The translations under genes and the position numbers were made by a program. Shown one piece after another: positions 16,953 to 33,747 of a stretch of DNA of 64,000 nucleotides. The stretch is taken from assembly GCA_050250665.1 (NCBI GenBank), contig JBFWOF010000007.1, positions 32,112 through 96,111 of the forward strand, given 5' to 3'. How positions within the stretch are numbered: position 1 is the stretch's first letter; the number at the start of each line of letters is the position of its first letter. The notes below the pieces were generated by a model, which was not told the origin of the DNA, searched no databases, and saw nothing but the letters and a program-made list of their open reading frames with translations. Source of the DNA: Lysobacterales bacterium. Its GTDB lineage: Bacteria > Pseudomonadota > Gammaproteobacteria > Xanthomonadales > SZUA-5.

Positions 16953-17175
16953 CCCGTCGGTCTCGGCGCTCGGTTCCAGCGGGGCCGCAAGCCGTGGCAA
17001 GGCGCTTTGCAGGCTTCGTGAGTGAGCGCACAGACACCACTTCGGGCTTACACTAAGCTGAAAGATGGCAGATGCGGTCCAAACCTGCCAAACCACCTGA
17101 GCAGTTGATGCTTTGTGCTTGATTCTAAATGCCCTATCCTATGGTGATCTGACCCAGAAGGGCGGGAGGGCCAAA

Positions 17176-18558
17176 ATGGCCGAGAAGATCTTGAATCGAT
17201 TGAGCCTGTCGGCAGTCACTCTGGCAGTGGCAGTGGCACTGGCGTGCGTGCCGGAGCCAGGGCATGCCCAGGCACAGAATTTCCAGATGCGCCTGGACCG
17301 GGCGATCGTGTACACGCCACTCTATCCCGGCGGATTTGCCGACACGGTGCCGCCGTACAGCATGTGTCGCTACAACGGCGATGGTAACAGTGGCATGGCG
17401 TTGCGCTTCCGCTACACCTGGAACAACACCTTTCAGGAGTACATCTACACCGAACCCGGTTCTACTTTCTATCCCTATTACTACATGCAGGGCGTCAACC
17501 CGAACCCGGCCTTGGTACCTGCAACGTCCGGCACCGGGCCGGTCTACAAGAATGTCGATGTCGGCTTGCTGACCGGTCCAGTCAACACCCTCGGCGTGCA
17601 AACGCTCACTTTCCGTGGACGCACTTCGGGATTCTTCGGTCAGCCCGTCATGACGGCTTCGCTGCCAGTGCAGATCGAGACGTTGTTCGAGCCCTATCCC
17701 ACGGTCTACCGTGAAGTGCCGGATGGCGCGCTGGATATGCCCACCCAACCTTGGTTTGCCTGGAGTCAGTCCGGAACGCCCGAGAGCGTGCGCTTTGACG
17801 TTGCCCCTTGCAGCAATGCGGCGGCGACGAACAACTCCGAGTGCACTTCGGCGATGCCGTTCGCACCCACGACCACCGCCTGTGGCAGCAGCCTCTACTG
17901 CTCCTCAGGTACGGCGAATACCTTGCAACTGCCGATCACGCTGGTGCGCAACACGGCCTATGAATATCGAGTGATCGGTAGAAACATCTGCGGTCTCAGC
18001 GATGAGCTGGCATCGACGCCATCGCGGCCCTTCTTCCGCACCGCGCAGGCCTGCTTCACCAGCGGTGGCAGCATTCCGGACGGTGGCACGGCCAACTTCG
18101 ACGTCTCGACTCTGGGCATCAATCCAGGTTCTCTGGCGCCCAATTTGCGGGTCACAGTGCATGTGGATCATGCCCAGGTCAGCGATCTGCGGATTTCCCT
18201 GACGAAGACCTCACCGGATAGCGCCGGTCCCTTGTTGCTGATGGATCGTCCTTCCGGGCCGAACTGCTCCGGTCGCCGCATCCAGGCGGTGTTCCGCGAT
18301 GGTGCGATTTCCGCGGTGGCGGCGTGCAAGAGCCAGGAGCCCGCCATCAGCGGCGCCATTTCCCCGGTTCAGGCTTTGTCCTCCTTTGCCAGCACCCAGG
18401 GCGGCGGAAACTGGAGACTGACGGTCGAGGACACCAGTGCCAACGGCAAGGCCGGCTATCTGCGGGAGTGGTGTCTGTCGGCGGATGTGCCGATCTCGCC
18501 GACGGCTTTCGTCGATCCGATCATCTGGGGCAGCGGCTTCGAGACGGTCAGCCCCTGA
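17176..18558 (+). CDS. secreted protein with C-terminal proprotein-convertase P-domain-like module
   Basis: ATG 17176 preceded by GGGAGGG. Signal peptide (AVAVALACVPEPGHAQA). C-terminal segment has VSDLRISLTKTSPDSAG ... GGGNWRLTVEDTSANGKAGYLREWCL. No protease domain recognised. Confidence 0.6.
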   Translation: MAEKILNRLSLSAVTLAVAVALACVPEPGHAQAQNFQMRLDRAIVYTPLYPGGFADTVPPYSMCRYNGDGNSGMALRFRYTWNNTFQEYIYTEPGSTFYPYYYMQGVNPNPALVPATSGTGPVYKNVDVGLLTGPVNTLGVQTLTFRGRTSGFFGQPVMTASLPVQIETLFEPYPTVYREVPDGALDMPTQPWFAWSQSGTPESVRFDVAPCSNAAATNNSECTSAMPFAPTTTACGSSLYCSSGTANTLQLPITLVRNTAYEYRVIGRNICGLSDELASTPSRPFFRTAQACFTSGGSIPDGGTANFDVSTLGINPGSLAPNLRVTVHVDHAQVSDLRISLTKTSPDSAGPLLLMDRPSGPNCSGRRIQAVFRDGAISAVAACKSQEPAISGAISPVQALSSFASTQGGGNWRLTVEDTSANGKAGYLREWCLSADVPISPTAFVDPIIWGSGFETVSP

Positions 18559-18904
18559 GATTCTGAGGCGCCCGCGATCGCGTGAGAGATTCGGGCACGC
18601 AGCCCACCGGGTGGGCTGCGCAGCCACCGTGTGGGGAACTCAGTCCTCCAGTTCGCCGCGCGCTTCCTCTGCGTGCTGCTTCCAGAACGCCAGCTCCGCT
18701 GAACCAAGGAAAGAGCATTCCTAGCAGGACCTCAGTTGCTATCTCAGTGAAAGTCACGTAGCCTGAAGGTTACTGGTTGTCACATTTGATACGAAATGAG
18801 CGCTCCTGAAAGAATCAGGCTGCGTGTTGGCGTCATTGGCAATGCTGGCTACCAGTTCCAAGTCAAGCCTGACAAATGCAAATTTAACTGGGGAGTCAAC
18901 GGTG

Positions 18905-19330
18905 ATGCTGCACAATCGAATTTACACTGTAGCTGGTCTTTTGTCTTTGATCCTCTTTGCGTTGCCATCAGTGGCGAATGCGTTGACAATCAATGGGTTG
19001 TTAGTTCAGCAAACTGACTGCAATCCTGTCAATGTAGCCTACAATTGCTCCGGGACAACGCTATCCACATTCACGAACATACCGAGCGGCAGCGGAACCG
19101 TGTACGCGCAAGTGATGAAAGATAATTACACGAAGGTGAAGTGTATTAATGTCAGGGGTAGTGTATCGGATCGGACTTCATCGGTATCCCTCAATGCAGG
19201 AACGGGCAGTGCCCAAATCAAAATGAGCACTCAGGTATTTTATTCAGTTGGGGATGGTGTCTCTTGCTCTGGTCTCGCGGCCGGAATTAATTTATCGAGC
19301 TCGGCGATAACCTTTGTCAGGGATATCTAG
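18905..19330 (+). CDS. hypothetical small secreted protein in a low-GC islet
   Basis: ATG 18905 preceded by GGGGAG. Signal peptide (LLSLILFALPSVANA), 141 aa, 4 Cys, Ser/Thr/Asn-rich. No family recognised. Confidence 0.5.
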   Translation: MLHNRIYTVAGLLSLILFALPSVANALTINGLLVQQTDCNPVNVAYNCSGTTLSTFTNIPSGSGTVYAQVMKDNYTKVKCINVRGSVSDRTSSVSLNAGTGSAQIKMSTQVFYSVGDGVSCSGLAAGINLSSSAITFVRDI

Positions 19331-19496: not shown

Positions 19497-20450
19497 CTAA
19501 TCTTCGAGCTCTTCCCGTGCTTCCTCGATGTCCAACGCCTCCATGGCATCGGCAGGCTCGATGGCTACCGCATCCTGATAGGCCTTGAGCGCGTCACTGC
19601 TGCGCTTCTTGCCGAACATCATCAGCAGGCCATTGCCATACTCGATGTGGGCGATGGGCGCCTGTGGCGTGAGCTTGAGGGCTTCCTGGAAGTGCTTGAT
19701 ACCGGTGTCGGTCTTGGCGCCGTAGGTCATGCCCCCGATCAGCGCACCGATCTTGTCGATGATCTCGGCGTGATACAGGCCCATCGCCGTGTGCGCCTCG
19801 GCATGGGCTGGTGACAGCTTCAGCGTACGCTCCAGACTTTCCTTGATCTTGCCGCCCAGACCCTGTGCCAGTGCCTTGGTGATCGAGATGCACTGGCTGT
19901 AGCGGCCCAGCGCGAAGGCGTGGAAGTAGTGGGCATTGGCATCATCGGGCATCGCCTTGATGGCGGCTTCGGCGCGCTTGGCGCAGTGTTCGAAGTGAGC
20001 CACGCGATCGGCTTCCTTGGCCAGATAGGTGGCGTAGATGCCCTCGGCCTTATTGGCGATGGTGGCCGCGATGACCCCGAGCGCATCGGCGGCCTCGGTG
20101 GCCTTCTGGAATTCGCCTCGGTGGAAGTCGCGCCAGGCCTCCTGCATGGCCGCAGCCACCGCATCGGCGTCGCCGCAATCCTTCAGCGCGGGATGCTTCT
20201 TCTGCAGCGCCGCCACATGCTTCTTGTCCGGGAAGGGTTCCTGGTCACCGGCATGGAGCCTGGGCCAGGCCTTGCTCAGCTTGCTTCCGGCGTAGTCGAA
20301 ATCAGAACTGGCGTGCGGGAACTTGACCCATTTCTTTGCTGCCACGATTGCTCTCCAGAATGCGTCGATCGAATGCCGAGCATCGTCAAAGGGTGCGTCG
20401 CTGGCAAGTGGTGGATGCGAGATTGTGTGGTTGGCACATTCCGACGCCAT
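19497..20450 (-). CDS. hypothetical alpha-helical (TPR-like) protein
   Basis: 317 aa with coding-like composition and an acidic C-terminus (EEAREELED). No family recognised with confidence. Confidence 0.5.
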   Translation of the reverse strand: MASECANHTISHPPLASDAPFDDARHSIDAFWRAIVAAKKWVKFPHASSDFDYAGSKLSKAWPRLHAGDQEPFPDKKHVAALQKKHPALKDCGDADAVAAAMQEAWRDFHRGEFQKATEAADALGVIAATIANKAEGIYATYLAKEADRVAHFEHCAKRAEAAIKAMPDDANAHYFHAFALGRYSQCISITKALAQGLGGKIKESLERTLKLSPAHAEAHTAMGLYHAEIIDKIGALIGGMTYGAKTDTGIKHFQEALKLTPQAPIAHIEYGNGLLMMFGKKRSSDALKAYQDAVAIEPADAMEALDIEEAREELED

Positions 20451-20578
20451 TCGGAAATAGCTGAACAGTCCACCTAAAGCCGGCGCTGCTTAGTGTGATT
20501 GTTCTATGGGCAGCGCTTACTTTGACTGTCAAGCGCGAGTGTTGTGGCGCTCAGTTTCCATCAATGAGGAGTTTAACC

Positions 20579-21022
20579 ATGGCTACGAAAAAGCTCGCCG
20601 GCAAGAAAGTGGTGCGCAATGCCAAGCGCGAAGTCAGCGAAGTGCGTGACAACGCCCGTGACCTGCTGCTGGCTTCGATCGGCGCAGTGTCGATCACCCG
20701 CAAGCAGGGTGCCAGCTTCGTCGGCAATCTGCTGGAGCAGGGTCAGGAACTGCGCGGTCGTGCGCTGAAGCTGGCCGAAGGCAAGGTCGCCGATGTCCGC
20801 CAGCAGGTGGAAGGCGTGATTGGCAAGGTGCAGCAGCGCGCTGCCGCCAATCTGAGCCAGGTCGAGACCGTTGTCGGCGGTCAGGTGACCCGCGTGCTCG
20901 GTCGTCTGGGCGTGCCGTCCAAGGCGGACGTCAAGGAGCTGTCGCGCCGTGTGGCCGAGCTCAACAAGCAGGTCAAGGCGCTGCAGGCCGCGCGCAAGAC
21001 TGGCGAAGCCAAGGCTGCCTGA
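20579..21022 (+). CDS. phasin-family granule-associated protein (PhaI-like)
   Basis: ATG 20579 preceded by GAGGA. Motif LGRLGVPSKADVKELSRRVAELNKQV is typical of PhaF/PhaI-type phasins. 147 aa, no AKP tail. Confidence 0.75.
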   Translation: MATKKLAGKKVVRNAKREVSEVRDNARDLLLASIGAVSITRKQGASFVGNLLEQGQELRGRALKLAEGKVADVRQQVEGVIGKVQQRAAANLSQVETVVGGQVTRVLGRLGVPSKADVKELSRRVAELNKQVKALQAARKTGEAKAA

Positions 21023-21046
21023 TCAAGGCAGTGTCTGAGTTATGCC

Positions 21047-21078
21047 GAAGGGCCGGAGCAATCCGGCCCTTCTTGTTT
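21047..21078. terminator. bidirectional rho-independent terminator
   Basis: GAAGGGCCGG-agcaat-CCGGCCCTTC followed by TTGTTT. Lies between the convergent phasin and TetR genes. Confidence 0.65.
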
Positions 21079-21731
21079 CAGCTGTTGCCGAGATACTGAT
21101 CGGCCAGCCGCGTCAGATGGGCCCGCTCTGCCGATTTCAGATAGGGCGCAATCAACACCATCACCTGATAGATGCCACGGCCGAGATCGACGTCCGATTT
21201 TGCACTGGTCGCCGGCTTGATCTGCTGGAAATTGAGCCAGAAGGTGGTCAATACCACCGTGTTCTGCGAGATCGCCTCGATTTCGCGTTGACTGGCGAGC
21301 ATCGTTCCGGCCTTGACCATTTCCGTGCAGACCGTGGAAATGCTCTCGTGCGCGCGTTTGAGGATGCGCGAAAAATGCATCTTCAGTTTGCGGCTGCGCG
21401 TGAGCAGATCGACCAGATCACGGTAGACGAAGCGATAGTCCCAGATGCACTCGAACACCAGGTGCATCTGCAACCACATGTCTTCGAGATTGGGCGTGCG
21501 CCCCTCCGGAACCAGCAAGGCATCACCGATACGCTCCTCGAAGCGCGCGAACAGCTGCTCGATGATGTCGTCCTTGTTGCGGAAGTGGTAGTACAGGTTT
21601 CCCGGGCTGATCTCGAGTTCGTCGGCGATGTGATTGGTGGTGACGTTGGGCTCACCCTGCACGTTGAACATTTCCAGGCTCTTCGCCAGGATCCGATCAC
21701 GCGTCTTGACTGGCACCGGTTCGGGGCTCAC
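21078..21731 (-). CDS. TetR-family regulator, PhaD-like
   Basis: KTRDRILAKSLEMFNVQGEPNVTTNHIADELEISPGNLYYHF HTH and C-terminal YQVMVLIAPYL resemble Pseudomonas PhaD (from memory). Start placed at GTG 21731 with GAGG upstream, 7 nt after the ACBP stop. Confidence 0.8.
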   Translation of the reverse strand: MSPEPVPVKTRDRILAKSLEMFNVQGEPNVTTNHIADELEISPGNLYYHFRNKDDIIEQLFARFEERIGDALLVPEGRTPNLEDMWLQMHLVFECIWDYRFVYRDLVDLLTRSRKLKMHFSRILKRAHESISTVCTEMVKAGTMLASQREIEAISQNTVVLTTFWLNFQQIKPATSAKSDVDLGRGIYQVMVLIAPYLKSAERAHLTRLADQYLGNS

Positions 21732-21738
21732 ATCGACC

Positions 21739-22002
21739 TCAGAAGTTTCCGCCGAGGCGCTTGACCAGGTCGATGTACTTCTGCTTTGCCTCGTCATGGG
21801 TGAGGCCCTTGAGCTTCTCCCAGGCTTCGTACTTGGCGGTGCCAACGAAGTCGAAGAAGCCGGGCTTCGGACCCGATACATCACCTTCGGTCGCCTGCTT
21901 GAAGTGGCTGTACAGCTTCAGCATGGTGTCGTTGTCGGGACGTTCCGGCAACTGCTTGGCGGCTTCGGTGGCGGCTTGAAACTGGCTTTCGATGTCTGAC
22001 AT
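21739..22002 (-). CDS. acyl-CoA-binding protein (ACBP)
   Basis: 87 aa with LKLYSHFKQATEGD and KYEAWEKLKG motifs. ATG 22002 preceded by GGGGGAAA. Confidence 0.9.
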   Translation of the reverse strand: MSDIESQFQAATEAAKQLPERPDNDTMLKLYSHFKQATEGDVSGPKPGFFDFVGTAKYEAWEKLKGLTHDEAKQKYIDLVKRLGGNF

Positions 22003-22205
22003 CTGTGTTTCCCCCAGAAATGGATGGTCAATCCCGGTCGCCACTATCGTTCCGACGATCAGGATTCGCAAGTGTTCCTGACGACCCTCTCTACAACTAT
22101 CACGTTCTGGTTGCTAGCGGCTCGGCTTCAGGCTGGTTATCTTAGGCGACAATCCGCCGGTTCCGCGGCGGCCCAAATCTCGAAGAACTCGGGGGAGGAA
22201 CAGGC

Positions 22206-24197
22206 ATGACTTACTTCGTTACGGGCGCCACCGGCTTTCTGGGTCGATTCCTGATCGGGAATCTGCTCAAGCGCAAGGGCACGATTCATGTGCTGGTCCG
22301 GCGTGGCTCCAAGGAGAAGTTCGAGGCCTTGCAGGCCAGATACCCGGAAGCCGGGGATCGTCTGGTGGCCGTCACTGGCGATCTGACCAAGGCCAAACTC
22401 GGTCTGAGTGCCCAGGCGCAGTCGCAGCTGAAGGGCAAGATCAAGCACTTCTTCCATCTCGCAGCCATCTATGACCTGTCGGCCAGTGCCGAATCGCAGC
22501 AGGCGGCAAACATCGACGGTACCCGCAATGCGGTGCAGCTGGCCGAGGCAGTAGGAGCAGGTTGCTTCCATCACGTCAGTTCGATTGCGGCCGCGGGCCT
22601 GTATTCGGGTGTGTTCCGCGAAGACATGTTCGACGAAGCAGAGAACCTGGATCACCCCTATTTCCGCACCAAGCATGATTCCGAAGGCATCGTCCGCAAG
22701 GAATGCAAGCGTCCCTTCCGCATCTACCGGCCGGGCATGGTCGTTGGTCATTCCCAGACTGGTGAGATCGACAAGATCGACGGCCCCTACTACTTCTTCA
22801 CCCTGCTCAAGCGCATGCGTGAGCTGTTGCCGCCGTGGATGCCCTTGCTGGGCATGGAAGGCGGACGCATCAACCTGGTGCCGGTGGATTTCGTGGTCAA
22901 CGCCATGGACCACATCGCCCATGAGAAAGGCTACGACGGCGGCTGCTTTCACCTCACTGATCCGGCGCCGCGCCGGGTCGGCGAGGTGCTGAACAGCTTC
23001 GCCTATGCCGGACATGCGCCGGAAATGACCATGCGCATCGACGCCCGCATCTTCCAGATCATCCCGGCCTCCATCCGCGGGGCGATCGGCATGCTGCCGC
23101 CGGTGCGACGGATCATGGGGCACGTGCTCAAGAGCCTGAACATTCCGGCCGATGTCCTGAAGTTCTTCAATTATCCGACCCGTTTCGACAGTCGCGAAAC
23201 CGAGCGCGCGCTCAAGGGCTCCGGCATCAAGGTGCCCGATCTCGACACCTACGCCTGGCGCCTCTGGGATTATTGGGAGCGCCACCTCGACCCCGATCTG
23301 TTCGTCGATCGCTCGCTGTCCAGCCGGGTCAAGGACAAGGTGGTCCTGATCACCGGTGGCTCCTCGGGCATCGGCCTGGCGACCGCCAGGAAGGTGGCTG
23401 CCGCCGGCGCACGCACGCTGATCTGTGCGCGCGGACTGGAAGATCTGGAAAAGGCCAAGGCCGAGATCGAGGCCGAGACCAAGAACGCCAAGGTGTTCAT
23501 CTATCAGGTGGATCTGGCGGAGTTGTCGTCAGCGGACGATCTGGTCAAGAAGGTCACTGCCGAGCATGGCGCGGTTGACGTGCTGATCAACAACGCCGGT
23601 CGTTCGATCCGGCGATCGATCGAACTGTCCTACGACCGCTTCCACGACTTCGAGCGCACCATGCAGCTGAACTATTTCGGTTCACTGCGGCTGGTCATGG
23701 GCTTTCTGCCGGGCATGACCGAGCGCCGCAAGGGCCATGTGATCAACATCAGCTCGATTGGCGTGCTCACCAACGCGCCGCGCTTCTCGGCCTACGTGGC
23801 CAGCAAGGCCGCGCTGGATGCCTTCTCGCGCTGCGCCGCCAGCGAGTTCTCCGACAAGAACATCCACTTCACGATCATCAACATGCCCTTGGTGAAGACG
23901 CCGATGATTGGCCCCACCAAGATCTACGACAACGTGCCTACGTTGACCCCTGACGAGGCTGCTGACATGGTCGTGCGCGGCATCATCGAGCGGCCGCATC
24001 GATTGGCGACACGGATGGGCATCTTCGCGGAAATGCTGCATCTGATGGCGCCCAAGGTCTATCAGGTGGTGCTCAACACCGCTTTCCAGCTGTTCCCGGA
24101 TTCCGCCGCTGCCAAGGGCGTGAAGGGCGGCCAGGAAGCACCGCCGTCGAGCGAGCAGGTGGCTTTCGCATCGCTGATGCGGGGCGTGCACTGGTAG
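22206..24197 (+). CDS. two-domain fatty acyl-CoA/aldehyde reductase (NAD(P)-binding reductase domain + SDR domain)
   Basis: N-terminal VTGATGFLG Rossmann. Second domain ITGGSSGIG with YVASK (YxxxK). At 663 aa the architecture matches the ~661-aa Marinobacter fatty alcohol-forming reductase (from memory). Confidence 0.8.
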   Translation: MTYFVTGATGFLGRFLIGNLLKRKGTIHVLVRRGSKEKFEALQARYPEAGDRLVAVTGDLTKAKLGLSAQAQSQLKGKIKHFFHLAAIYDLSASAESQQAANIDGTRNAVQLAEAVGAGCFHHVSSIAAAGLYSGVFREDMFDEAENLDHPYFRTKHDSEGIVRKECKRPFRIYRPGMVVGHSQTGEIDKIDGPYYFFTLLKRMRELLPPWMPLLGMEGGRINLVPVDFVVNAMDHIAHEKGYDGGCFHLTDPAPRRVGEVLNSFAYAGHAPEMTMRIDARIFQIIPASIRGAIGMLPPVRRIMGHVLKSLNIPADVLKFFNYPTRFDSRETERALKGSGIKVPDLDTYAWRLWDYWERHLDPDLFVDRSLSSRVKDKVVLITGGSSGIGLATARKVAAAGARTLICARGLEDLEKAKAEIEAETKNAKVFIYQVDLAELSSADDLVKKVTAEHGAVDVLINNAGRSIRRSIELSYDRFHDFERTMQLNYFGSLRLVMGFLPGMTERRKGHVINISSIGVLTNAPRFSAYVASKAALDAFSRCAASEFSDKNIHFTIINMPLVKTPMIGPTKIYDNVPTLTPDEAADMVVRGIIERPHRLATRMGIFAEMLHLMAPKVYQVVLNTAFQLFPDSAAAKGVKGGQEAPPSSEQVAFASLMRGVHW

Positions 24198-24223
24198 TCT
24201 GCCGAGCGGCATTGCTGCAAACG

Positions 24224-24251
24224 AAAAAGGCGCCCTCAGGGGCGCCTTTTT
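24224..24251. terminator. rho-independent terminator (bidirectional A/T flanks)
   Basis: AAAAA-GGCGCCC-tcag-GGGCGCC-TTTTT, 27 nt after the reductase stop. Confidence 0.8.
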
Positions 24252-24708
24252 CGTTCTTGGCCCGGTCATGGTCAAGCGCAGTTGATTGACGGGTCCATAC
24301 GAGTCGACTGTTTCGGCCCGAAACTGCGGCGGCTTGCAGGTCGCGACGCGAGGCCGCTCCAGTGTGTAGCCCGTTGTGCCGAGCAGCGGCTCAGCGGGGC
24401 TTTTTCGCGTCACCGCCCGCAGAGCGCTGCGCGCACTTCGGGCTACGCAGAGCCGCTTTGCCACAGTCTCGTAAATTCAACAACTTACGATGCCGGTTGA
24501 TGGAAAGCCAACGGTGTCGGCCTGCCGCAGAAGCTCGCCCGTCAGTCTCGGTAGCGAGTTGCGAATGGGCGCCTCAAAAAAGGTGCCCGCCAGCCGGCCG
24601 GTCGGGGAGGGCGATCGGCAAAAAACGTTGGCTGGCGGACATGGAAACGGGGGCGCATCCTTGCGCCAAAGGTCGGCGAGTGGCTCGCCGACCTGATATC
24701 AGCCTGAA

Positions 24709-25404
24709 TCAGGCCGCCGGCTTGGTTTCCGCAGCCGCGACCACGGCTTCGGTGGTCTTCGGCGCAGCAGCCTTCTTCGGCGCCGCAGCCTTCGGCGCAG
24801 CAGCCTTCTTCGGCGCAGCAGCCTTCGGAGCAGCGGCCTTCTTCGGGGCAGCAGCCTTCGGAGCGGCGGCCTTCGGAGCAGCCTTCTTCGGCGCTGCAGC
24901 CTTCGGAGCAGCAGCCTTCGGAGCAGCAGCCTTCGGAGCAGCAGCCTTCTTCGGCGTTGCGGCGCGGTTGCCCGCATCCAGCGAACGCACGGCCTTGCTC
25001 AGCTCGTCAACGCGCTTGGCCAGCTCTTCCAGCTCTTCGCGACCCGGAATGCCGAGAGTGCCCAGAGCCTTGGAGACGCGATTCTCGAACACCTGTTCGA
25101 GGCGGTCCCAAGTGTCAGAGGCTCGTTCCTTGACCTGTGTAACGGTGGTTTCGACCATGCCGCGCACTTCCTCAACTTTGTTGCCGGTCAGCTTGCGCGT
25201 CGCTTTCTCAAGCACTGCGCCTTCCTTGACCAGCGTCTCGTAGAACTTGCCGCTCTGCTCCTGTGCCTTGGAGAAAGCACCCAAGCCTGCCAGCCAGATC
25301 TGCTCGGCCTGTTCCATGACGGCCTTGGCGGTGTTCTTCAGCGTGTTCTCGCTGGCGGAATCCTTGGCCTTGGCCTTGAATTTGGTACCTTTGGAAGTTT
25401 TCAT
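24709..25404 (-). CDS. PhaF-like granule-associated protein (phasin domain + AAPK histone-H1-like tail)
   Basis: N-terminal IWLAGLGAFSKAQE, mid LGIPGREELEELAKRVDELSKAV, then ~69 aa of AAAPK/AAAPKK repeats. Confidence 0.8.
   Translation of the reverse strand: MKTSKGTKFKAKAKDSASENTLKNTAKAVMEQAEQIWLAGLGAFSKAQEQSGKFYETLVKEGAVLEKATRKLTGNKVEEVRGMVETTVTQVKERASDTWDRLEQVFENRVSKALGTLGIPGREELEELAKRVDELSKAVRSLDAGNRAATPKKAAAPKAAAPKAAAPKAAAPKKAAPKAAAPKAAAPKKAAAPKAAAPKKAAAPKAAAPKKAAAPKTTEAVVAAAETKPAA
24757..24963 (-). repeat. tandem 15/18-bp coding repeats (AAAPK / AAAPKK)
   Basis: Direct reading: GCAGCCTTCGG / GCAGCCTTCTTCGG periodicity on the + strand. Confidence 0.85.
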
Positions 25405-25532
25405 CTTGACCCTCTGCTCGTTCCAGCCTCGCCCCGCTTCGCCAGGTGCGAAGCGCAGGAATGTGGAGGCATGGTGCGGCCCGGGGCTAGAATATTCACA
25501 CTATGCAAAGCCTATTCGACGCGGTTTTTCGG

Positions 25533-26855
25533 TCAATATGGGCTTGCATTCTCAGGGAATTGTTCGATAGGGGCCGATTTGCGACGTGAGTTGGAAGGGC
25601 GCTTGCGGCCTTCCTGCAGACGCCGGGTTCGCTGCAGTGCTCGATCAAGTTCATTCAGCGATCGGTCCAGCCGTGACAGCAAGGTCGAGTTCGGCGGCCT
25701 GGTGCCTTCCAGACCATCCCAAACCGTGCGCTCGGTATCTTCGAGTATGTCGTCGCGCAGACTCAACCCATGCCGTTCCAGCACCGGCTGCAGCTGCTCG
25801 CGGCGCAGCCGCAGATCGGCCAGCGTGGTGGCATAGGCGTGTTCGCACAGTCGGCGGCGACTGCTGAAACTGAAGACGTTGGTGAAGAACATCTCGGCGT
25901 CGTCCAGATCCGGCTGGAACAGCACCAGATCGGAATGATCGTAAGCCTTGTCATATTTGCCGAAGCCGACCCGCATGCGTGAATAGAGCATGGCCCGGAT
26001 GGTTTGCGAGATGACCCTGGGAAAACCGCCATCCACGAGGCTGGCCGGAGGTTCATCGCCACGGTCGCGCATGCGCGAGGCATCAAAGGGTACCAACGGA
26101 TTCAATGCCAGCAGCAGGTCGATATCCTCATCCAGCGCGATCGAGGCGTGCAGCGTGCGTTGCAGGGCGCCGTCGACGTAGTAGCGGCCATTGATTTCCA
26201 CTGGCGGATAGAAGCCCGGCAGTGCCGAACTGGCCTGGACGGCCTTGGATATCGGCACGGTGTTGTCGGTGCCTGTGCCAAAGCGCACGGCGTGGCCGGT
26301 GTCGATGTCCACGGCCACCACATACAGCGGCCGATCCAGCTTGCGGAAATCGTTGCTGCGGCCGGGCGCATTGAAGATGCCGCTGAGGTAGCGCTCGATG
26401 CCCTCATTGTCGAACAGACCGGTGGGAATCGCCGCGCCTAGCCGGCCCAATGACTCACTCCACCGAACCGAACGTGGATGCAGGGCCAGATCGACCAGCC
26501 AGTCGGCCAGGATTCCCGGCACGGCGCTCAGGCGCTTGATGTATTCGTAGAAAGCCGGCTTCAGGAAGTGTTCCGGACGGAACTGATGCTCGGGCGATTC
26601 CTCGGTGATGAACATGCGGCACATTTCCGCCGAATCGACCCGGTTGGCGAGGCCAGCCGCCAGAAACGCGCCCGAGCTCACGCCCACGTAAACGTCCAGC
26701 CGGGTCAGGTCCAGCCCGTCTATGGCCTCGTCCAGCGCCCGCAGGGCGCCCATTTCGTAGATGCCACCGATCGGGCCGCCGCCGGCAACCGCCAGTCCGA
26801 TCCGGTGCGGGGTGTTCAGTGAACGGGTTCGACGAGCTTCCTGCAAATGCAGCAT
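25533..26855 (-). CDS. patatin-like phospholipase/lipase
   Basis: Oxyanion AGGGPIGG, nucleophile elbow GVSSGA, catalytic DGAL; 440 aa. Confidence 0.85.
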   Translation of the reverse strand: MLHLQEARRTRSLNTPHRIGLAVAGGGPIGGIYEMGALRALDEAIDGLDLTRLDVYVGVSSGAFLAAGLANRVDSAEMCRMFITEESPEHQFRPEHFLKPAFYEYIKRLSAVPGILADWLVDLALHPRSVRWSESLGRLGAAIPTGLFDNEGIERYLSGIFNAPGRSNDFRKLDRPLYVVAVDIDTGHAVRFGTGTDNTVPISKAVQASSALPGFYPPVEINGRYYVDGALQRTLHASIALDEDIDLLLALNPLVPFDASRMRDRGDEPPASLVDGGFPRVISQTIRAMLYSRMRVGFGKYDKAYDHSDLVLFQPDLDDAEMFFTNVFSFSSRRRLCEHAYATTLADLRLRREQLQPVLERHGLSLRDDILEDTERTVWDGLEGTRPPNSTLLSRLDRSLNELDRALQRTRRLQEGRKRPSNSRRKSAPIEQFPENASPY

Positions 26856-26929
26856 TCTGGGGCATCCCTGATTCTGATCGCGCCCGATTGTAGTCTCGCT
26901 GGCTTTGACAGTTCGCTCGGCATGCGCGC

Positions 26930-27955
26930 TTGTTTACCTTCTTCATGCTGCGGCAGTGGAGTGTGCGATCTATTGCGCTGGCGCAAACTATGTCCATGAA
27001 CGATCGAGAATTTTTGCCGCCACAGGCACATCGCCCCACCCTGAAGTGGGCTCTTGTTGCGGTCTGGCTGGCGCAGCTGGCGCTGCTGGTGTGGGTGGCG
27101 CTGGCGCTGCGTGCCCAGGGGTGGACCTGGCTTGGCGCCGCGTCGAGCGTCGTCCTGGTCTGGTTGCTGCTGCAGGGATTGCTGCTGGCCTTCCCCTATG
27201 TGCTGAAGTGGCGACTGGGCGATTGGTCGCGGGAGATCCGGGGATCGCTGCGGCAGATGCTGCGCACGTTGAGTGTCGAAGCAGGCTGGATGACACGCTT
27301 CTATCTGATCGAACATCCGTGGCGAGGTGCGCCGATGCAGCTGCAGCCCGCGGATCAGCGCCTGCCGCTGCTGCTGGTGCACGGATTTCTCTGCAATGGT
27401 GCGGTCTGGAATCCGCTGGCGGCTGACCTTCGGGCTGCGGGGCGCAGTTTCGCCAGCGTGTCCCTGGAGCCGAGCTACCGGGATTTCCAGCAACAGCTGC
27501 GTGATCTCGATGCCGCGGTGTCCATGTGGCTGGCCGCCACCGGCGTATCACGATTGATCCTGATCGGGCACAGCATGGGCGGACTGCTGGCGCGAGCGTA
27601 CGCCGATCGCGATCCGCAACGCTGCGCGGCGGTGATCTGCGTAGCGGCACCGCATCATGGCACCTATCTCGGCGACTGGTTCCACGGATTGGAAGGCGGT
27701 CCGCCTTCGCCCCGTTGCCGGTGGCTGCAGGAGTACAACGCCCGCAGCCAGGAGCGGATTGCGGTGCCGGCCTTGAATCTGTGGAGTGCTGACGACAGTA
27801 TCGTGTTGCCGGCTGCCAGCGCGCAGCTCGCGGCGACGCCCGAGCAGGCTCTGCATGGCCATGGTCATATGGCACTGGTGGCGGCGCCCGCAGCCCGTGC
27901 CCTGTTGATGCGTACACTGGGCGAACTTGAATCCGGCCTGGAGGGCTCATCGTGA
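26930..27955 (+). CDS. membrane-anchored alpha/beta-hydrolase (lipase/esterase-like)
   Basis: Two N-terminal TM helices, LLLVHGFLCNG, nucleophile elbow GHSMGG. Start 26930 or ATG 26990. Confidence 0.75.
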   Translation: MFTFFMLRQWSVRSIALAQTMSMNDREFLPPQAHRPTLKWALVAVWLAQLALLVWVALALRAQGWTWLGAASSVVLVWLLLQGLLLAFPYVLKWRLGDWSREIRGSLRQMLRTLSVEAGWMTRFYLIEHPWRGAPMQLQPADQRLPLLLVHGFLCNGAVWNPLAADLRAAGRSFASVSLEPSYRDFQQQLRDLDAAVSMWLAATGVSRLILIGHSMGGLLARAYADRDPQRCAAVICVAAPHHGTYLGDWFHGLEGGPPSPRCRWLQEYNARSQERIAVPALNLWSADDSIVLPAASAQLAATPEQALHGHGHMALVAAPAARALLMRTLGELESGLEGSS

Positions 27956-28001
27956 CGCGAATCGGGAATCCATCGACGTCCACAGACAAGGTCAAGTCCA
28001 T

Positions 28002-28739
28002 ATGAGTGCCATCGGTGAACGCCTGCGCGCCCTGCTGAACCGATTGCAGCAGCAGCACCAGCGATCTGGCGCCGATGCCGACGTCGCCCGGCGTCTGGCG
28101 GCACTGCGGGCCTGGCAATCGCGACGGCTGGCCGCCAGCTACGCCGATATCCGCCAGCAACCCCGATTTGCGGCAGCCTGCGAGTTCTTTCTGGCCGATC
28201 TCTATGGAGAGGGTGATTTTGCCGACCGTGACCGGGCCGTGGAGCGGGTGGTGCCGATCATGATGCGATTGCTGCCCGAAGGTGTGCTCGCCAGTCTGGC
28301 ACGTGCGATCGAGCTCAATGCGCTCAGTCAGGAGCTCGATTACGGCATGGCTGCGGCTCTGCCCGGACATTGCACGCACGCCGATGCCATCACCGATGTC
28401 GATTACGCCGCCGCCTACGCGCTGTCAGCCGAACGTCAGGCCCGCCGTCGGCAACTGGCCCTGCTGCTGGTGCTGGGGCGTGAACTCGACCGGCTGGTGC
28501 GCAAGCCAATGCTGTCCGAATTACTGCACCTGTGCCGCTGGCCGGCGCGGATGGCGGGCCTCGGCGCGTTGCAGAGTTTTCTCGAGCGCGGCTTCGATGC
28601 CTTTGGCAAGCTCGGCGGTGCCAATGTGTTTCTGGGTACGATCCTGCTGCGCGAGCGCGCCTTCATGCGTGCCGTCGACCGCGTGCTCGACGGCAATGCC
28701 CAGTTGCGACTTCAGGATCCGAATTCCTGGTCCAGGTAG
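28002..28739 (+). CDS. hypothetical protein with FFLADLY motif (possibly the family named for an FFLEELY motif; from memory, unverified)
   Basis: 245 aa, helical, motif ACEFFLADLYGEGDF. Start placed at ATG 28002. Confidence 0.45.
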   Translation: MSAIGERLRALLNRLQQQHQRSGADADVARRLAALRAWQSRRLAASYADIRQQPRFAAACEFFLADLYGEGDFADRDRAVERVVPIMMRLLPEGVLASLARAIELNALSQELDYGMAAALPGHCTHADAITDVDYAAAYALSAERQARRRQLALLLVLGRELDRLVRKPMLSELLHLCRWPARMAGLGALQSFLERGFDAFGKLGGANVFLGTILLRERAFMRAVDRVLDGNAQLRLQDPNSWSR

Positions 28740-28990
28740 CGCCCGATTTCCTGCTCGATGGCCGACTTGATCGGCAGCAACAGCCAGCTGATGTTCGCGT
28801 GCACTGACACCGAATCGGCCTCCACCGCGATCTCGCCATCCACGCCCACGCGCGAGAACTCCAGCGTGTTGCGATTCCAGCGGGCGTCGATCTCGAACTT
28901 GTCCCGAATGTGCTTGGCGACCTTGTCGACCGCCTTCTTGGCCTTGGTGACACCCAGTTCGTGCTGTCGATGCATGCGTATAGTGGCCAT
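28712..28990 (-). CDS. small polyhydroxyalkanoic-acid-system protein (PHA_gran_rgn type)
   Basis: 92 aa. Pattern H.LG...AK.AVDKVA..I...F.I...W..N.L.F.R.GV.G.I.V ... IEQEI..YLD matches that family as I remember it. Confidence 0.65.
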   Translation of the reverse strand: MATIRMHRQHELGVTKAKKAVDKVAKHIRDKFEIDARWNRNTLEFSRVGVDGEIAVEADSVSVHANISWLLLPIKSAIEQEIGRYLDQEFGS

Positions 28991-29029
28991 ATCGAGCCCT
29001 CCCTTGCCCGGATCAGGTCAGGGTTGATT

Positions 29030-29821
29030 ATGATGAAAGCCAAGTCCCGTGGGGAGCATTCTGTGCGCATCTGTCTCGCCGTGTGGTTGCTGGGAGTCTC
29101 ATTGCCGCTTCTGGCACAGGAACAGCCGCGTTCGCAGCCCGCTGCGGCGGCCCCCAGAGTCCAATCTGAGCCCGCGGCTCCTGCCGCTGCAAGGCCGGCG
29201 GAAGCTGCAACGATGAAGCTGCACGGCCAGCTGCTCCTGAGCAGTGGCGGGCGACCGCTGCGCAGCGAAGAAGCCCAGGATGCGGTTGTCTACTTTCGAC
29301 CGGATTCGCCGGTAGCGCCGGTGGTGCCGACAACACCTTTCGTCATTGCCACCGAGCGCAAGACCTTCGTGCCCAGAGTCTTGCCGATACCGGTCGGTGC
29401 CAGCGTGCGTTTTCCGAACAACGATCCAATTCTGCACAACGTCTTTTCCAGCACCCGCGAGGCCGCCTTCGACCTCGGCCTGTACGGGCGCAGCGAGGGC
29501 GAGAGCTATCACTTCACCCAGCCGGGGGTGATTCGGGTGTTCTGCAATGTGCATCACGCCATGGTGGCCCATGTGCTGGTGCTCGATACGCCATTCTTCA
29601 CCAAGCCCGACGCCCAGGGCAGATTCAATCTGAAAGGAATTCCTCCCGGCCCCGGTGAACTGTTCGTGTGGCATGAACGGGCCCAGCTCTGGCGGAGTAA
29701 GATCAGTGCTGGCACAGATGACGAGGTCAAGGTGCAGCTGGAGCTGAGCAAGCGGCGGGTGCCGCCGCATCTCAACAAGACCGGCCAGCCCTACCGGAGG
29801 ACAAGGCCTGATGAGTACTGA
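29030..29821 (+). CDS. periplasmic cupredoxin-fold-like protein
   Basis: Signal peptide (LAVWLLGVSLPLLAQE). VRFPNNDPILHNVFS ... VFCNVHHAMVAHVLV resembles plastocyanin-like / methylamine-utilisation-annotated proteins. 11-nt overlap with the next gene. Confidence 0.55.
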   Translation: MMKAKSRGEHSVRICLAVWLLGVSLPLLAQEQPRSQPAAAAPRVQSEPAAPAAARPAEAATMKLHGQLLLSSGGRPLRSEEAQDAVVYFRPDSPVAPVVPTTPFVIATERKTFVPRVLPIPVGASVRFPNNDPILHNVFSSTREAAFDLGLYGRSEGESYHFTQPGVIRVFCNVHHAMVAHVLVLDTPFFTKPDAQGRFNLKGIPPGPGELFVWHERAQLWRSKISAGTDDEVKVQLELSKRRVPPHLNKTGQPYRRTRPDEY

Positions 29822-32600
29822 ACGCGGATTCAGGCTGCCCCTGGCTGCTCGTATCTTCTTTGCGAGCGGCTTCATGGTGGCTCTTGCCGTGGCGCTGGCG
29901 GCGCTGGTGACGCTGCAGTATGGCCGTCGCGCGGGAGAGGACGCGGTTGACCACAGTCTGGAAGCGGCCAACAACGCCCAGGAACGGTTCGAGGCGCTGT
30001 CCTTCCAGAAGCTCGACATCGTGGCCAAGACGATCATCAACGATGCCAGCTTCGTGCGCTATGTGGCGACCGCCACGGTGGGCAGCAGCGGCCTGAACGA
30101 GCTCGGCATCGCCTCACCGCCGGACGTGCCAGTGGCGGCGGCGACCGAGCCCGATGAATCAGGGAGTTCCGAGCAATCCGCCAGTCTGCCAGCCCCGGAG
30201 CCGGATGCCGACAGCGCTTCGGTCAAGGATCTGCTGACTCAGTTTGGCGAAAGTTACGACTTCAGCTTCGGGATGGTGCTGGATGCTGACGGTCGGGTGG
30301 TCGCCCGCACGGACGAACGCGAGGCCTTCGCCGATGATCTTTCCGACGATCCCATGTTCGGCAACATGATCAAGGACATCGTCGGAGTGACCGGATACTG
30401 GCGCAATGGCCTGGCTTTGCTGCAGGTGTCGGCGCAGCCAATGGTGATGCAGGATGAACTGGTCGGATTTCTGGTCATCGGCGTGCCGGTGGATGCCGGC
30501 GTGGTCAAGCAGGTGCGCGAAGTCAGCGGTGGCGAAGTCGCCTTCTGGGTCATGGATCAGGACAAGCTGCGCCTGATAGCCACGTCGGTGGATGAATCTG
30601 CTGCGGCTCTGCTGAAGGAATCGATCTCCAGGATCGAACCCAATCTGCTCGAAAGTCTGCAGGCCGGCCGCTCGCTGGCGCGGGTGCGTGATCTCTCTCT
30701 GGGGAGCACCACCCTGGCAGCCAGTCTGGCGCCGCTGTTCGGTCAGCCTGGGGACGCCGTGGGTGGCGTGATCACCATGACCTCCATCGACACGGCCATG
30801 GCGCCTTTCCAGTCCATCCGCAACGCCGTGCTGCTGGGTGGACTGATCGCGCTGCTGTTGTCGCTGGCGGTGTCCTGGTGGCTGGCTCGCAGGGTGTTGC
30901 GGCCGGTCTCCGAATTGATTGAGGCCGCTGAACAGGCGGCTGGCGGCAACTATCACCAGCAGTTGACCATCGAAGGCAATGACGAAGTGGCCAGACTCGG
31001 ACGGGCCTTCGACTCGCTGCTCAGCGATCTGCGTGAGAAGAAGGACATCGAAGGATACGTCGGCCATCTGTCGCGTTTCCTGCCCGATCCAGGTTCCGAG
31101 GCGCAGCTTTTGCCGGCGGCGCCGGCGCCCAAACCAGTCACCAGACGCGAATGCGCACTGGTGGGTCTGGAGCTTCGACGTTTCCTGCGCGCGCCACCCA
31201 AGGGTGAGGAAGCGATCACCTTGACCGCGCTCGGTCAGTTGATCGAAGAAGCGGTTGCCCGTGCCCAGGCCGCTGGTGGCGAGCTGCTGGAGCAGGAAGG
31301 TCCCAGACTGCTGTTCGGATTCGGTGGTGAGTCGTCCGAACTGCGGGCGCTGGCGGCGGTCAGCGCCTGGTGGGAAGGACGCATCGGTACCAGCGACAAT
31401 GGCGCGGCGGTGGCGCTGGCACTGGGCGAGATCGTGCACGGATCGTTGCCGGCTCGGCCGGAATCAAGCGCCACCATCGGCTTGCCGGTGCTGCAGGTCG
31501 AGCGTCTGCTGGCGGAGACGCCGGTGGGTCAGATGCTGCTGTCGCCGGCCTTCGGCGAGCGCATCAAGAGCATCGGTCAGACCGGCGTGTTGCGCGCCGC
31601 GCAGGGGCAGAGCAGCGGCAAGCGCTTCCTGTCGATCGATCGTCCCAGTCTGAGCGCAGTGGCGCGGCTGGCTCCTGGCCTGTCCCAGGCCACGGTGATG
31701 ATGGGGGCAGAGGGTGCCGCTACCCAGGTCGCCGGTGCTGCTGCTCCGGCAGCATCCGACCAGGCTTCGACCCGGCTGGCGCTGGGGATGCGCTTCGCCG
31801 GTCGTTACGAGATTCTGGCGATACTCGGCGCCGGTGGCATGGGCATGGTCTACAAGGCGCGCGACACCGACCTGTCCGATGTGGTGGCGCTGAAGATGCT
31901 GCGCCCGGGGATGGTCATCGATGCCGAGCAACTGGAGGGACTCAAGGTCGAGCTCAAGCTGGCGCGCAAGATCACCCACCCCAATGTGCTGCGCACCTAC
32001 GATTTCGGCGAATTCCAGGGCGTACCCTACATTTCGATGGAATATGTGCGCGGCCTGACCCTGCGTTACCTGCTGCAGCAGGCCGGCAGATTGCCGTTCT
32101 CGGCAGCCTTGCGGATCGCCCGGCAGCTGTGCATGGGCCTGGATGCCGCGCATCAGATGGGCGTGATCCATCGCGACATCAAGCCGGAGAACATCATCAT
32201 CGAGCAGAGCGGCAACGCCAAGCTGATGGACTTCGGCATCGCCCGCTCTGCCGGACGCTCGGATTCCAGGCATACCCAGCCGGGTACCTTCCTGGGTACG
32301 CCCAACTATGCCTCGCCCGAACAGCTCTCGGGTTCGGATCTGGATCAACGTACCGACATCTATTCCACCGGCGTCATGTTGTGCGAAATGTTCTGCGGCA
32401 AGTTGCCCTTCACCGGTAGCAATACCATGGAACTCTATGTAGCCCATCTGCAACAGGCACCGATCAAGCCCTCCGAGTTGTGGCCCGATATTCCGCGGGC
32501 TCTGGAAGAGGTCATTCTCAAATGCCTGGAGAAAAAGCCCGATGATCGATACGCTTCGTCGGCGGATCTGCTGGTGGCGTTGTCCGGACTGCGGGCCTGA
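29811..32600 (+). CDS. transmembrane sensor Ser/Thr protein kinase (periplasmic sensor, HAMP, degenerate cyclase-homology-like domain, STK)
   Basis: TM helix, ~300-aa periplasmic region, second TM, HAMP (LRPVSELIEAAEQAAGGNYHQQL...DEVARLGRAFDSL). A CHD-like stretch lacks the metal Asp (ALVGLELRRF). Kinase motifs GAGGMGMVYKA, VALK, HRDIKPEN, DFGIAR are present. Confidence 0.85.
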   Translation: MSTERGFRLPLAARIFFASGFMVALAVALAALVTLQYGRRAGEDAVDHSLEAANNAQERFEALSFQKLDIVAKTIINDASFVRYVATATVGSSGLNELGIASPPDVPVAAATEPDESGSSEQSASLPAPEPDADSASVKDLLTQFGESYDFSFGMVLDADGRVVARTDEREAFADDLSDDPMFGNMIKDIVGVTGYWRNGLALLQVSAQPMVMQDELVGFLVIGVPVDAGVVKQVREVSGGEVAFWVMDQDKLRLIATSVDESAAALLKESISRIEPNLLESLQAGRSLARVRDLSLGSTTLAASLAPLFGQPGDAVGGVITMTSIDTAMAPFQSIRNAVLLGGLIALLLSLAVSWWLARRVLRPVSELIEAAEQAAGGNYHQQLTIEGNDEVARLGRAFDSLLSDLREKKDIEGYVGHLSRFLPDPGSEAQLLPAAPAPKPVTRRECALVGLELRRFLRAPPKGEEAITLTALGQLIEEAVARAQAAGGELLEQEGPRLLFGFGGESSELRALAAVSAWWEGRIGTSDNGAAVALALGEIVHGSLPARPESSATIGLPVLQVERLLAETPVGQMLLSPAFGERIKSIGQTGVLRAAQGQSSGKRFLSIDRPSLSAVARLAPGLSQATVMMGAEGAATQVAGAAAPAASDQASTRLALGMRFAGRYEILAILGAGGMGMVYKARDTDLSDVVALKMLRPGMVIDAEQLEGLKVELKLARKITHPNVLRTYDFGEFQGVPYISMEYVRGLTLRYLLQQAGRLPFSAALRIARQLCMGLDAAHQMGVIHRDIKPENIIIEQSGNAKLMDFGIARSAGRSDSRHTQPGTFLGTPNYASPEQLSGSDLDQRTDIYSTGVMLCEMFCGKLPFTGSNTMELYVAHLQQAPIKPSELWPDIPRALEEVILKCLEKKPDDRYASSADLLVALSGLRA

Positions 32601-32611
32601 GGGGGACACAG

Positions 32612-33706: not shown

Positions 33707-33747
33707 TCTTCGCCCATGACCTTTCTACAGAGCCCCTGACGCAGCCG

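Follow-up and report, generated by a model that had tools for sequence, protein, structure and literature searches.

Why should genes for the coat of polyhydroxyalkanoate (PHA) granules stand among genes for wax-ester synthesis? The question is raised by a locus of an uncultured Lysobacterales (Xanthomonadales) bacterium (assembly GCA_050250665.1, contig JBFWOF010000007.1), which was analysed here as a window of 64,000 nucleotides, positions 32,112 to 96,111 of the contig. Phasins are the textbook proteins of PHA granules, and in this window two phasin genes and the gene of a PhaD-family TetR regulator are found together with genes for a fatty acyl-CoA reductase (FAR), an acyl-CoA-binding protein (ACBP), a patatin-like lipase, an alpha/beta hydrolase, an FFLEELY-motif protein and a TIGR02610 protein. 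A sequence-only reading had listed these nine genes within 8.4 kb (20579-28990), with a wax ester synthase/diacylglycerol acyltransferase (WS/DGAT) 3.6 kb upstream; all of them lie where that reading placed them and have significant matches to hidden Markov models of Pfam and NCBIfam. The gene of a conserved TPR protein (19497-20450, minus strand), missing from that list, is also part of the cluster. Directly established are the family assignments, the operator-like box common to the two phasin genes and the conservation of the neighbourhood. On this sequence evidence we see an even chance that we are dealing with a conserved storage-lipid island in which the phasins act on wax-ester or triacylglycerol inclusions.

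Wax-ester synthesis is represented by two predicted enzymes. The WS/DGAT (15240-16952, plus strand, 570 aa) matches TIGR02946 with 425.6 bits (cutoff 309.95) and contains both Pfam domains (PF03007 and PF06974) and the HHxxxDG motif, which reads HHCYADG. The FAR (22206-24197, plus strand, 663 aa) matches NF005539 with 987 bits (cutoff 549) and consists of an N-terminal reductase domain (PF07993) and a C-terminal SDR domain (PF00106), and its two YxxxK motifs, Y152/K156 and Y530/K534, are invariant across the FAR alignment. It is identical to a protein from a Lysobacterales metagenome-assembled genome (MAG; 100%), 70-72% identical to Lysobacter and Luteimonas proteins, and 63% identical over its full length to P0129 of the Marinobacter 661-aa FAR family, which includes Maqu_2507. 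By architecture, motifs and full-length identity the window protein is a predicted FAR of the Maqu_2507 type, a family that provides the alcohols for wax esters in Marinobacter. Catalytic motifs are also intact in the patatin-like lipase (25533-26855, minus strand, 440 aa; PF01734, 104.5 bits), which contains GGGxxG, GVSSG and DGA, and in the membrane-anchored alpha/beta hydrolase (26930-27955, plus strand, 341 aa; PF00561 and PF12146), which has an N-terminal membrane segment and a GHSMGG nucleophile elbow. The ACBP (21739-22005, minus strand, 88 aa; PF00887, 103.9 bits) is encoded by the first gene of an ACBP-TetR pair.

The regulator and the phasins were compared with pha clusters from Pseudomonas-type metagenome contigs, for example L086, which contains phaC1, phaZ, phaC2, phaD, phaF and phaI. 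A plasmid-borne class II phaC of Pseudomonas mandelii, found without phaD, phaF and phaI alongside, was set aside as a reference. The window TetR (21078-21731, minus strand, at most 217 aa) is 36% identical to the L086 PhaD over 190 aa (BLASTP, E=7e-42), and the two proteins have in common the pair of domains PF00440 and PF13972 (139 bits in the window TetR, 122.6 bits in PhaD). By this comparison the window TetR is a true PhaD homologue; its nearest PDB entries are 3nnr and 3rh2. Its position differs from that of PhaD, following ACBP and facing FAR rather than following phaC2. The gene had been placed 7 nt after that of the ACBP. The common strand stands, and the gap becomes 7-28 nt, the start codon being either at 21731 or a GTG 21 nt further in. 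A G+C-rich hairpin between the convergent short phasin and TetR genes (21047-21072), found by the terminator scan and in the palindrome list, is likely a bidirectional terminator.

The long phasin (24709-25404, minus strand, 231 aa) matches TIGR01837 with 118.6 bits (cutoff 94.7) and PF05597 with 140 bits, and thus has a PhaF-type domain; its identity to Pseudomonas PhaF is 34-41% (tblastn). It also has the kind of tail that marks PhaF, a histone-H1-like run of about twelve AAAPK repeats encoded at 24757-24949 (15-nt unit, 12.3 copies by Tandem Repeats Finder, TRF), and K/A/P-rich basic tails are found in the long-phasin homologues across the related loci as well. The short phasin (20579-21022, plus strand, 147 aa) has no basic tail and is not co-transcribed with the long one. 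Its earlier description as PhaI-like holds for the domain and the size (PF05597, 82.8 bits, above the Pfam cutoff; 25-34% identity to Pseudomonas PhaI by tblastn), while its TIGR01837 score, 76.9 bits, falls under the 94.7 cutoff. The matches listed in a protein search with the phasin N-domain came from MAGs, with identities of 58% or more, and none was from Xanthomonas or Stenotrophomonas. Towards their C-termini, both phasin domains weakly match the C-terminus of PhaE, the class III synthase subunit (PF09712, E=6e-4; TIGR01834, E=2e-4 and 6e-3).

The fourth member of this group is the PHA_gran_rgn/TIGR02610 protein (28712-28990, minus strand, 92 aa), which scores 67 bits against a cutoff of 40.25 and whose homologues are found directly beyond phaI in many Pseudomonas pha loci. 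Its AlphaFold2 (AF2) model has an alpha-beta4-alpha arrangement (predicted local distance difference test, pLDDT, 70), and the best fold match in the PDB is 2jpi (template modelling score 0.62), that is PA4090, an uncharacterised protein, the likeness being at fold level only. Given the matches to PhaD, PhaF, PhaI and TIGR02610, all four of the non-enzyme families of the Pseudomonas pha cluster therefore have homologues in the window, PhaI by domain and size.

A basic tail is also found on the WS/DGAT, the C-terminus of which is a K/A/P-rich extension of about 100 residues (16600-16952) with an AAKPKA repeat encoded at 16738-16840 (18-nt unit, 5.7 copies by TRF). Since the repeat units differ, 18 nt vs 15 nt, this tail and that of the long phasin are not copies of each other. 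The AAKPKA tail is found only in the window and in L004, its 98% relative. The WS/DGATs within the betaproteobacterial clusters have other basic tails, which end in (V/I)PKRFRNL.

The two phasin genes are further linked by their upstream sequences. Published PhaD operators consist of two 6-bp inverted half-sites 8 bp apart, and PhaD itself is an activator, believed to detect one of the CoA intermediates of beta-oxidation, that interacts with PhaF (PMC7590123); the presumed co-transcription of ACBP and TetR fits the logic of such sensing. The Pseudomonas loci contain CTTAGG-GTGAAGAT-TCTAAT (PI) 5′ of phaI and TTTAGA-GCGCATTT-TCTAAA (PC1) 5′ of phaC1. The window contains CTTAGT-GTGATTGT-TCTATG (20489-20508, plus strand), 71 nt 5′ of the short phasin ATG and 39 nt from the TPR start codon, with a position weight matrix (PWM) score of 26.0, and CATAGT-GTGAATAT-TCTAGC (25486-25505, minus strand), 82 nt 5′ of the long phasin ATG, with the top score of the window, 31.4. 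Both are 20 bp long and align with PI and PC1 in the same 6-8-6 layout, and the GTGAATAT spacer is one position off that of the P. putida-type PI box. They are the two high-scoring PWM hits of the whole 64 kb, against 0.02 per window in shuffled sequence, and its sole TAG-N10-CTA dyads. The window TetR would be expected to bind both. An 11-mer at 17048-17060 that resembles the left part of the box has no PWM score and was dismissed as a chance likeness.

Is this arrangement peculiar to one genome? A scan based on the FAR alignment, with one genome per species, gave 80 loci with FARs 64-98% identical, mostly from Lysobacterales but also from Betaproteobacteria (Usitatibacter, GR16-43 and others), a Chromatiales MAG and an Alcanivoracaceae MAG. 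Genes were counted over those 45 loci that extend 6 kb or more to either side of FAR; they come from Lysobacterales, Betaproteobacteria and the Chromatiales MAG. The TetR and the ACBP are each found in 44/45, always divergent from FAR as a pair, and a phasin in 40/45. The patatin gene, which adjoins the long phasin, is present in 31 of these loci, the TPR gene in 29, the FFLEELY gene in 27 and the TIGR02610 gene in 26, and PhaC in none. The alpha/beta hydrolase is found in 4/45; in betaproteobacterial loci a hydrolase 29-34% identical to that of the window adjoins FAR. A PhaD-type box precedes phasin genes in 40 of the 45 loci, betaproteobacterial ones included, and the related loci together give 79 PWM hits in 1.32 Mb (0.02 per shuffled window). 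The order WS/DGAT-TPR-[box]-phasin-TetR-ACBP<>FAR is found in compact form in L032, L064, L076 and L078. WS/DGAT directly adjoins the TPR gene in these four and in the betaproteobacterial L083, which holds ten cluster genes in 13 kb. Complete Lysobacter genomes have the same gene order by precomputed Pfam labels, and a search that started from phasin homologues led to L167, where FAR-ACBP-TetR again stands beside a phasin. Carriers of the cluster include Lysobacter CP091194 and CP093547, Betaproteobacteria bacterium GR16-43 (CP019169), Chiayiivirga flava DSM 24163, Dokdonella soli, Luteimonas and Tahibacter soli. The recurrence of the neighbourhood among relatives, for which the sequence-only reading had proposed a synteny comparison, is thus confirmed, and the conserved linkage argues, at the level of gene order, for genes that function together, with acyl-CoA at the centre.

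That two unrelated units came together by chance in this single genome could have been suspected from a gene order unlike that of the Pseudomonas cluster and from the apparent insertion between WS/DGAT and the remaining genes of the window. Synteny refutes it, with the neighbourhood present in 40/45 loci whose FARs range from 64 to 98% identity and which include Betaproteobacteria, and we regard such an accident as scarcely credible.

Some further features of the related loci may be recorded here. In Lysobacter L001 (7580-8067) a second PhaD-type box precedes a 135-aa open reading frame (ORF) with no precomputed Pfam label, which is probably a diverged short phasin, to judge from a sub-threshold PF05597 match (E=7e-5). 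Between the short phasin and TetR, L064 (8540-8911) and L076 (5857-6228) contain weak matches to a PhaZ-like alpha/beta hydrolase (E about 0.002-0.003 against real Pseudomonas PhaZ).

The most conserved core of the neighbourhood is the trio TetR-ACBP<>FAR, and in loci of the L052, L065, L067 and L077 types it stands without phasins. The trio could accordingly make fatty alcohols or aldehydes for a use other than storage, such as envelope lipids or the detoxification of excess acyl-CoA, with phasins as general amphipathic shields and no wax-ester organelle at all. The position of WS/DGAT, mostly outside the cluster, is in keeping with this idea. On the other hand WS/DGAT directly adjoins the cluster genes in about ten loci of distant lineages, a patatin lipase is linked to them in the 31 loci counted above, and the FAR family is the one that feeds wax-ester alcohols in Marinobacter; we think a purely non-storage role improbable.

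A more serious alternative concerns PHA itself. No PhaC or PhaZ had been noticed in the window, and the searches bear this out over the full 64 kb. With C. necator PhaC and P. putida PhaC1 as tblastn queries nothing was found in the window below E=0.4, and with PhaZ and PhaC2 from L086 nothing below E=0.01; the C. necator query was checked against PDB 5hz2, and the PhaC1 query is 98% identical to sequences of real contigs. Pfam scans of some 50 window ORFs gave no PHA synthase, PhaE, PhaR or depolymerase family, and the other ORFs scanned encode housekeeping, signalling and transport proteins. Around FAR, no phaC is found within 10 kb in any of 83 FAR loci. As evidence that there is no PHA system in the genome, the absence from the window is weak. 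Xanthomonas oryzae, of the same order, makes polyhydroxybutyrate (PHB) with adjacent phaC-phaE and with phaR and phaZ elsewhere in the genome, PhaR being the separate regulator of this class III PHB system. Stenotrophomonas genomes have been reported with phaABC, and lists of PHA accumulators include Lysobacter. PHA does occur in the order, and the phasins could therefore coat PHB granules formed by a synthase encoded outside the window. On this account the phasins, the PhaD-like TetR and the TIGR02610 protein would all serve PHA or PHB granules, the synthase would be encoded elsewhere, probably as a class III PhaC-PhaE, and FAR, ACBP and patatin would be neighbours through common acyl-CoA pools.

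Several observations favour this PHA-granule explanation or otherwise weigh against a wax-ester role. TIGR01837 and TIGR02610 were defined on PHA granule proteins, and the operator-like box is the same as that at Pseudomonas pha promoters. The scattered pha genes of X. oryzae, which makes PHB, point the same way. WS/DGAT lies within 10 kb of FAR in just 6/45 full-flank loci, and in the window it is parted from the TPR gene by a stretch of about 2.5 kb with lower GC (0.58; 17113-19330). L165 contains a solitary close phasin homologue that still has its box. Conversely, the lipid-enzyme genes have none: by PWM and dyad scan of the window there is no PhaD-type box 5′ of FAR, ACBP, WS/DGAT or patatin, so that common regulation of enzymes and coat is not supported. 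The divergent promoter region between ACBP-TetR and FAR (22006-22205), when compared across 74 loci, likewise shows promoter-like conserved blocks only (TTGACC; GGAATTGT...TCTGGCAACGTAG) and no PhaD-type dyad. In Marinobacter, unlike in the window, none of the genes for TetR, ACBP, phasin and patatin is a neighbour of FAR. Patatin-like proteins, too, have been found on the PHB granules of Ralstonia eutropha.

Against the PHA-granule explanation stands, besides the lack of phaC in the window and around FAR, the fact that in Pseudomonas these four families are always found beside phaC1-phaZ-phaC2. The TetR regulator is here tied to ACBP and FAR, and tight WS/DGAT-TPR-phasin-TetR-ACBP-FAR sets recur in two proteobacterial classes. 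Moreover, PhaR already serves as the regulator of the PHB system in this order, so that a PhaD/PhaF/PhaI set would be a second system and not the PHB one. We consider it rather unlikely, but far from negligible, that the phasins of this locus serve PHA or PHB granules alone.

What, then, might the storage-lipid island do? FAR and WS/DGAT would together convert acyl-CoA into wax esters and possibly into triacylglycerol. The ACBP, likely co-transcribed with the PhaD-family TetR, would buffer or deliver the acyl-CoA pool. By analogy with PhaD, the TetR may respond to a ligand of the fatty acyl-CoA type and bind the 6-8-6 boxes at both phasin genes. The two PF05597 phasins would coat the hydrophobic inclusion, and the AAAPK tail of the long phasin could tether it to the nucleoid, as PhaF does; the similar tail of the WS/DGAT, in this lineage only, could have the same tethering function. 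The patatin lipase and the alpha/beta hydrolase may mobilise the stored esters, with the TPR, FFLEELY and TIGR02610 proteins as possible accessory parts. If the genome also encodes a PHA synthase, the phasins may have PHA granules as a second target. In this scheme we infer the ligand of the TetR, activation by the TetR, the binding of phasins to wax-ester or triacylglycerol bodies and the substrates of the lipases.

The sequence-only reading had suggested that a granule coat and regulator module serves wax-ester or triacylglycerol bodies here. In favour of this are the homologues of PhaD, PhaF, PhaI and TIGR02610, the boxes at both phasins and a phaC-free cluster with FAR, ACBP and patatin; the bare promoters of the enzyme genes and the scarcity of WS/DGAT near FAR leave it partly supported. 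A wider proposal, to which we assign slightly less than an even chance, is that PF05597 phasins and a PhaD-type regulator are dedicated to coating and controlling wax-ester or triacylglycerol bodies in Lysobacterales and some Betaproteobacteria. These would be the first structural proteins of Gram-negative neutral-lipid inclusions, and the PHA coat of Pseudomonas would represent one case in which a broader "hydrophobic inclusion" module that senses acyl-CoA was recruited. Because in this lineage the WS/DGAT itself has a histone-like tail, droplet synthesis would, under this proposal, start at the nucleoid.

The possible accessory proteins offer few clues to their roles. The TPR protein (317 aa; PF13414, TPR_11), which is encoded divergently from the short phasin, has generic TPR matches, a weak Pfam match to RMD1-3 (E=0.007) and a weak profile match to the lipid-transfer TPR domain of RMDN3 (PDB 7cc7, E=0.02) that is a lead only. 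The FFLEELY-motif protein (DUF8198; 27927-28739, plus strand, 270 aa) matches NF047641 with 220.1 bits (cutoff 55). Its motif reads FFLADLY, and F87, F88 and Y93 are invariant in the family alignment. Sequence and profile searches with this protein returned no relative in the PDB, and its single-sequence AF2 model was unusable (pLDDT 41). The FFLEELY ORF overlaps that of the hydrolase by 29 nt on the same strand (27927-27955), and its 3′ end overlaps that of the convergent TIGR02610 ORF by 28 nt (28712-28739).

The remaining features of the window lie between or around the cluster genes. The lower-GC stretch 3′ of WS/DGAT encodes a 481-aa secreted protein with a proprotein-convertase P-domain and a 168-aa ORF, and it looks like an insertion, because the WS/DGAT and TPR genes adjoin in several other loci. 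Directly 3′ of FAR, a hairpin with a T run (24226-24249, plus strand), seen in the sequence and in the palindrome list, is likely the FAR terminator. It lies in the 510-bp non-coding gap (24198-24708) between the convergent FAR and long phasin genes, which contains several hairpins. Rfam gave no match in the window, this gap included. The cluster is followed on its 3′ side (28910-34599) by a 303-aa ORF and a HAMP-Ser/Thr kinase of 929 aa, as well as by a 364-aa ORF and a double-FHA protein. In L036, L054 and L055, too, the 303-aa ORF and the kinase come after the TIGR02610 gene, and in Lysobacter an FHA protein is found at the position after this gene. Farther away, the segment 51189-54705 contains the gene of a 669-aa protein, which has a Peptidase_S74 (endosialidase-chaperone) domain, and a 472-aa ORF for which Pfam gave no match. 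These ORFs fail the filter for GC at third codon positions (GC3), and the segment may be foreign DNA.

To our knowledge, no structural or regulatory proteins have been established for Gram-negative wax-ester or triacylglycerol bodies. The cluster provides a concrete, testable coat candidate for such lipid bodies, with a layout found in dozens of species, and culturable carriers exist in Lysobacter, Luteimonas, Dokdonella and Chiayiivirga. If the wax-ester role is true, the families PF05597, TIGR01837, TIGR02610 and PhaD would no longer be specific for PHA, and many automatic "PHA" annotations would need correction. It would also hint at how storage organelles swap coat modules, and it would supply parts for wax-ester engineering, in the form of droplet-binding tags and of a regulator responsive to acyl-CoA together with its operator. 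If PHB is what the phasins serve, the locus would reveal that control of the PHB coat is coupled in the genome, unexpectedly, to fatty alcohol metabolism.

The nearest published precedent comes from Subantarctic sediment Betaproteobacteria, in which WS/DGAT-ACBP-SDR scaffolds were described, some with a phasin or a "PHA system family protein" (PMC10351704). That study assigns the phasin and PHA-system genes to PHA metabolism and proposes no coat or regulator role at wax bodies; the TetR and the operator go unmentioned, and Lysobacterales lie outside its survey. Apart from it, a full-text literature search returned no report of phasins on Gram-negative wax-ester bodies or of this cluster, nor any on wax esters in Lysobacter. 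The earlier impression that the arrangement had not been described before thus holds, within that search, for the cluster and for wax-body phasins, with the reservation that the co-occurrence of the genes has been seen in passing.

Among characterized systems, the wax ester pathway of Marinobacter, with a Maqu_2507-type FAR and a WS/DGAT, resembles the biosynthetic part of the locus, to judge from the 63% identity of the FARs and from a WS/DGAT with both domains and the HHxxxDG motif. We know of no structural coat proteins for the wax-ester bodies of Marinobacter. For the tails there are functional parallels in TadA and MLDS of Rhodococcus and PhaM of Ralstonia, structural or tethering proteins of inclusions in which basic DNA-binding segments provide the link to the nucleoid. 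The AAAPK repeats of the long phasin and the AAKPKA repeats at the end of the WS/DGAT are proposed here to act likewise; the protein families are unrelated, and no homology is claimed. Unlike in TadA, MLDS and PhaM, the tail is in the window and L004 fused to the synthase itself.

The closest comparison remains the P. putida pha cluster, in which phaC1-phaZ-phaC2-phaD is accompanied by phaI-phaF and by a TIGR02610 gene beyond phaI. In contrast to that cluster, the window has neither class II synthases nor PhaZ, and the neighbours are FAR, ACBP, patatin, alpha/beta hydrolase, TPR, FFLEELY and WS/DGAT genes. The phasin genes do not share an operon, the regulator gene comes after ACBP instead of phaC2, and the biosynthetic genes are without the box that in Pseudomonas lies 5′ of phaC1. 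The gene order differs to such an extent that the idea of FAR and patatin taking the places of polymerase and depolymerase does not hold as a one-for-one positional swap. What the two clusters have in common is a PhaD-family TetR, a TIGR02610 protein, a long phasin with an AKP-rich tail and a short phasin without one, and a 6-8-6 box with a near-identical spacer about 70-80 nt 5′ of the phasin start codon.

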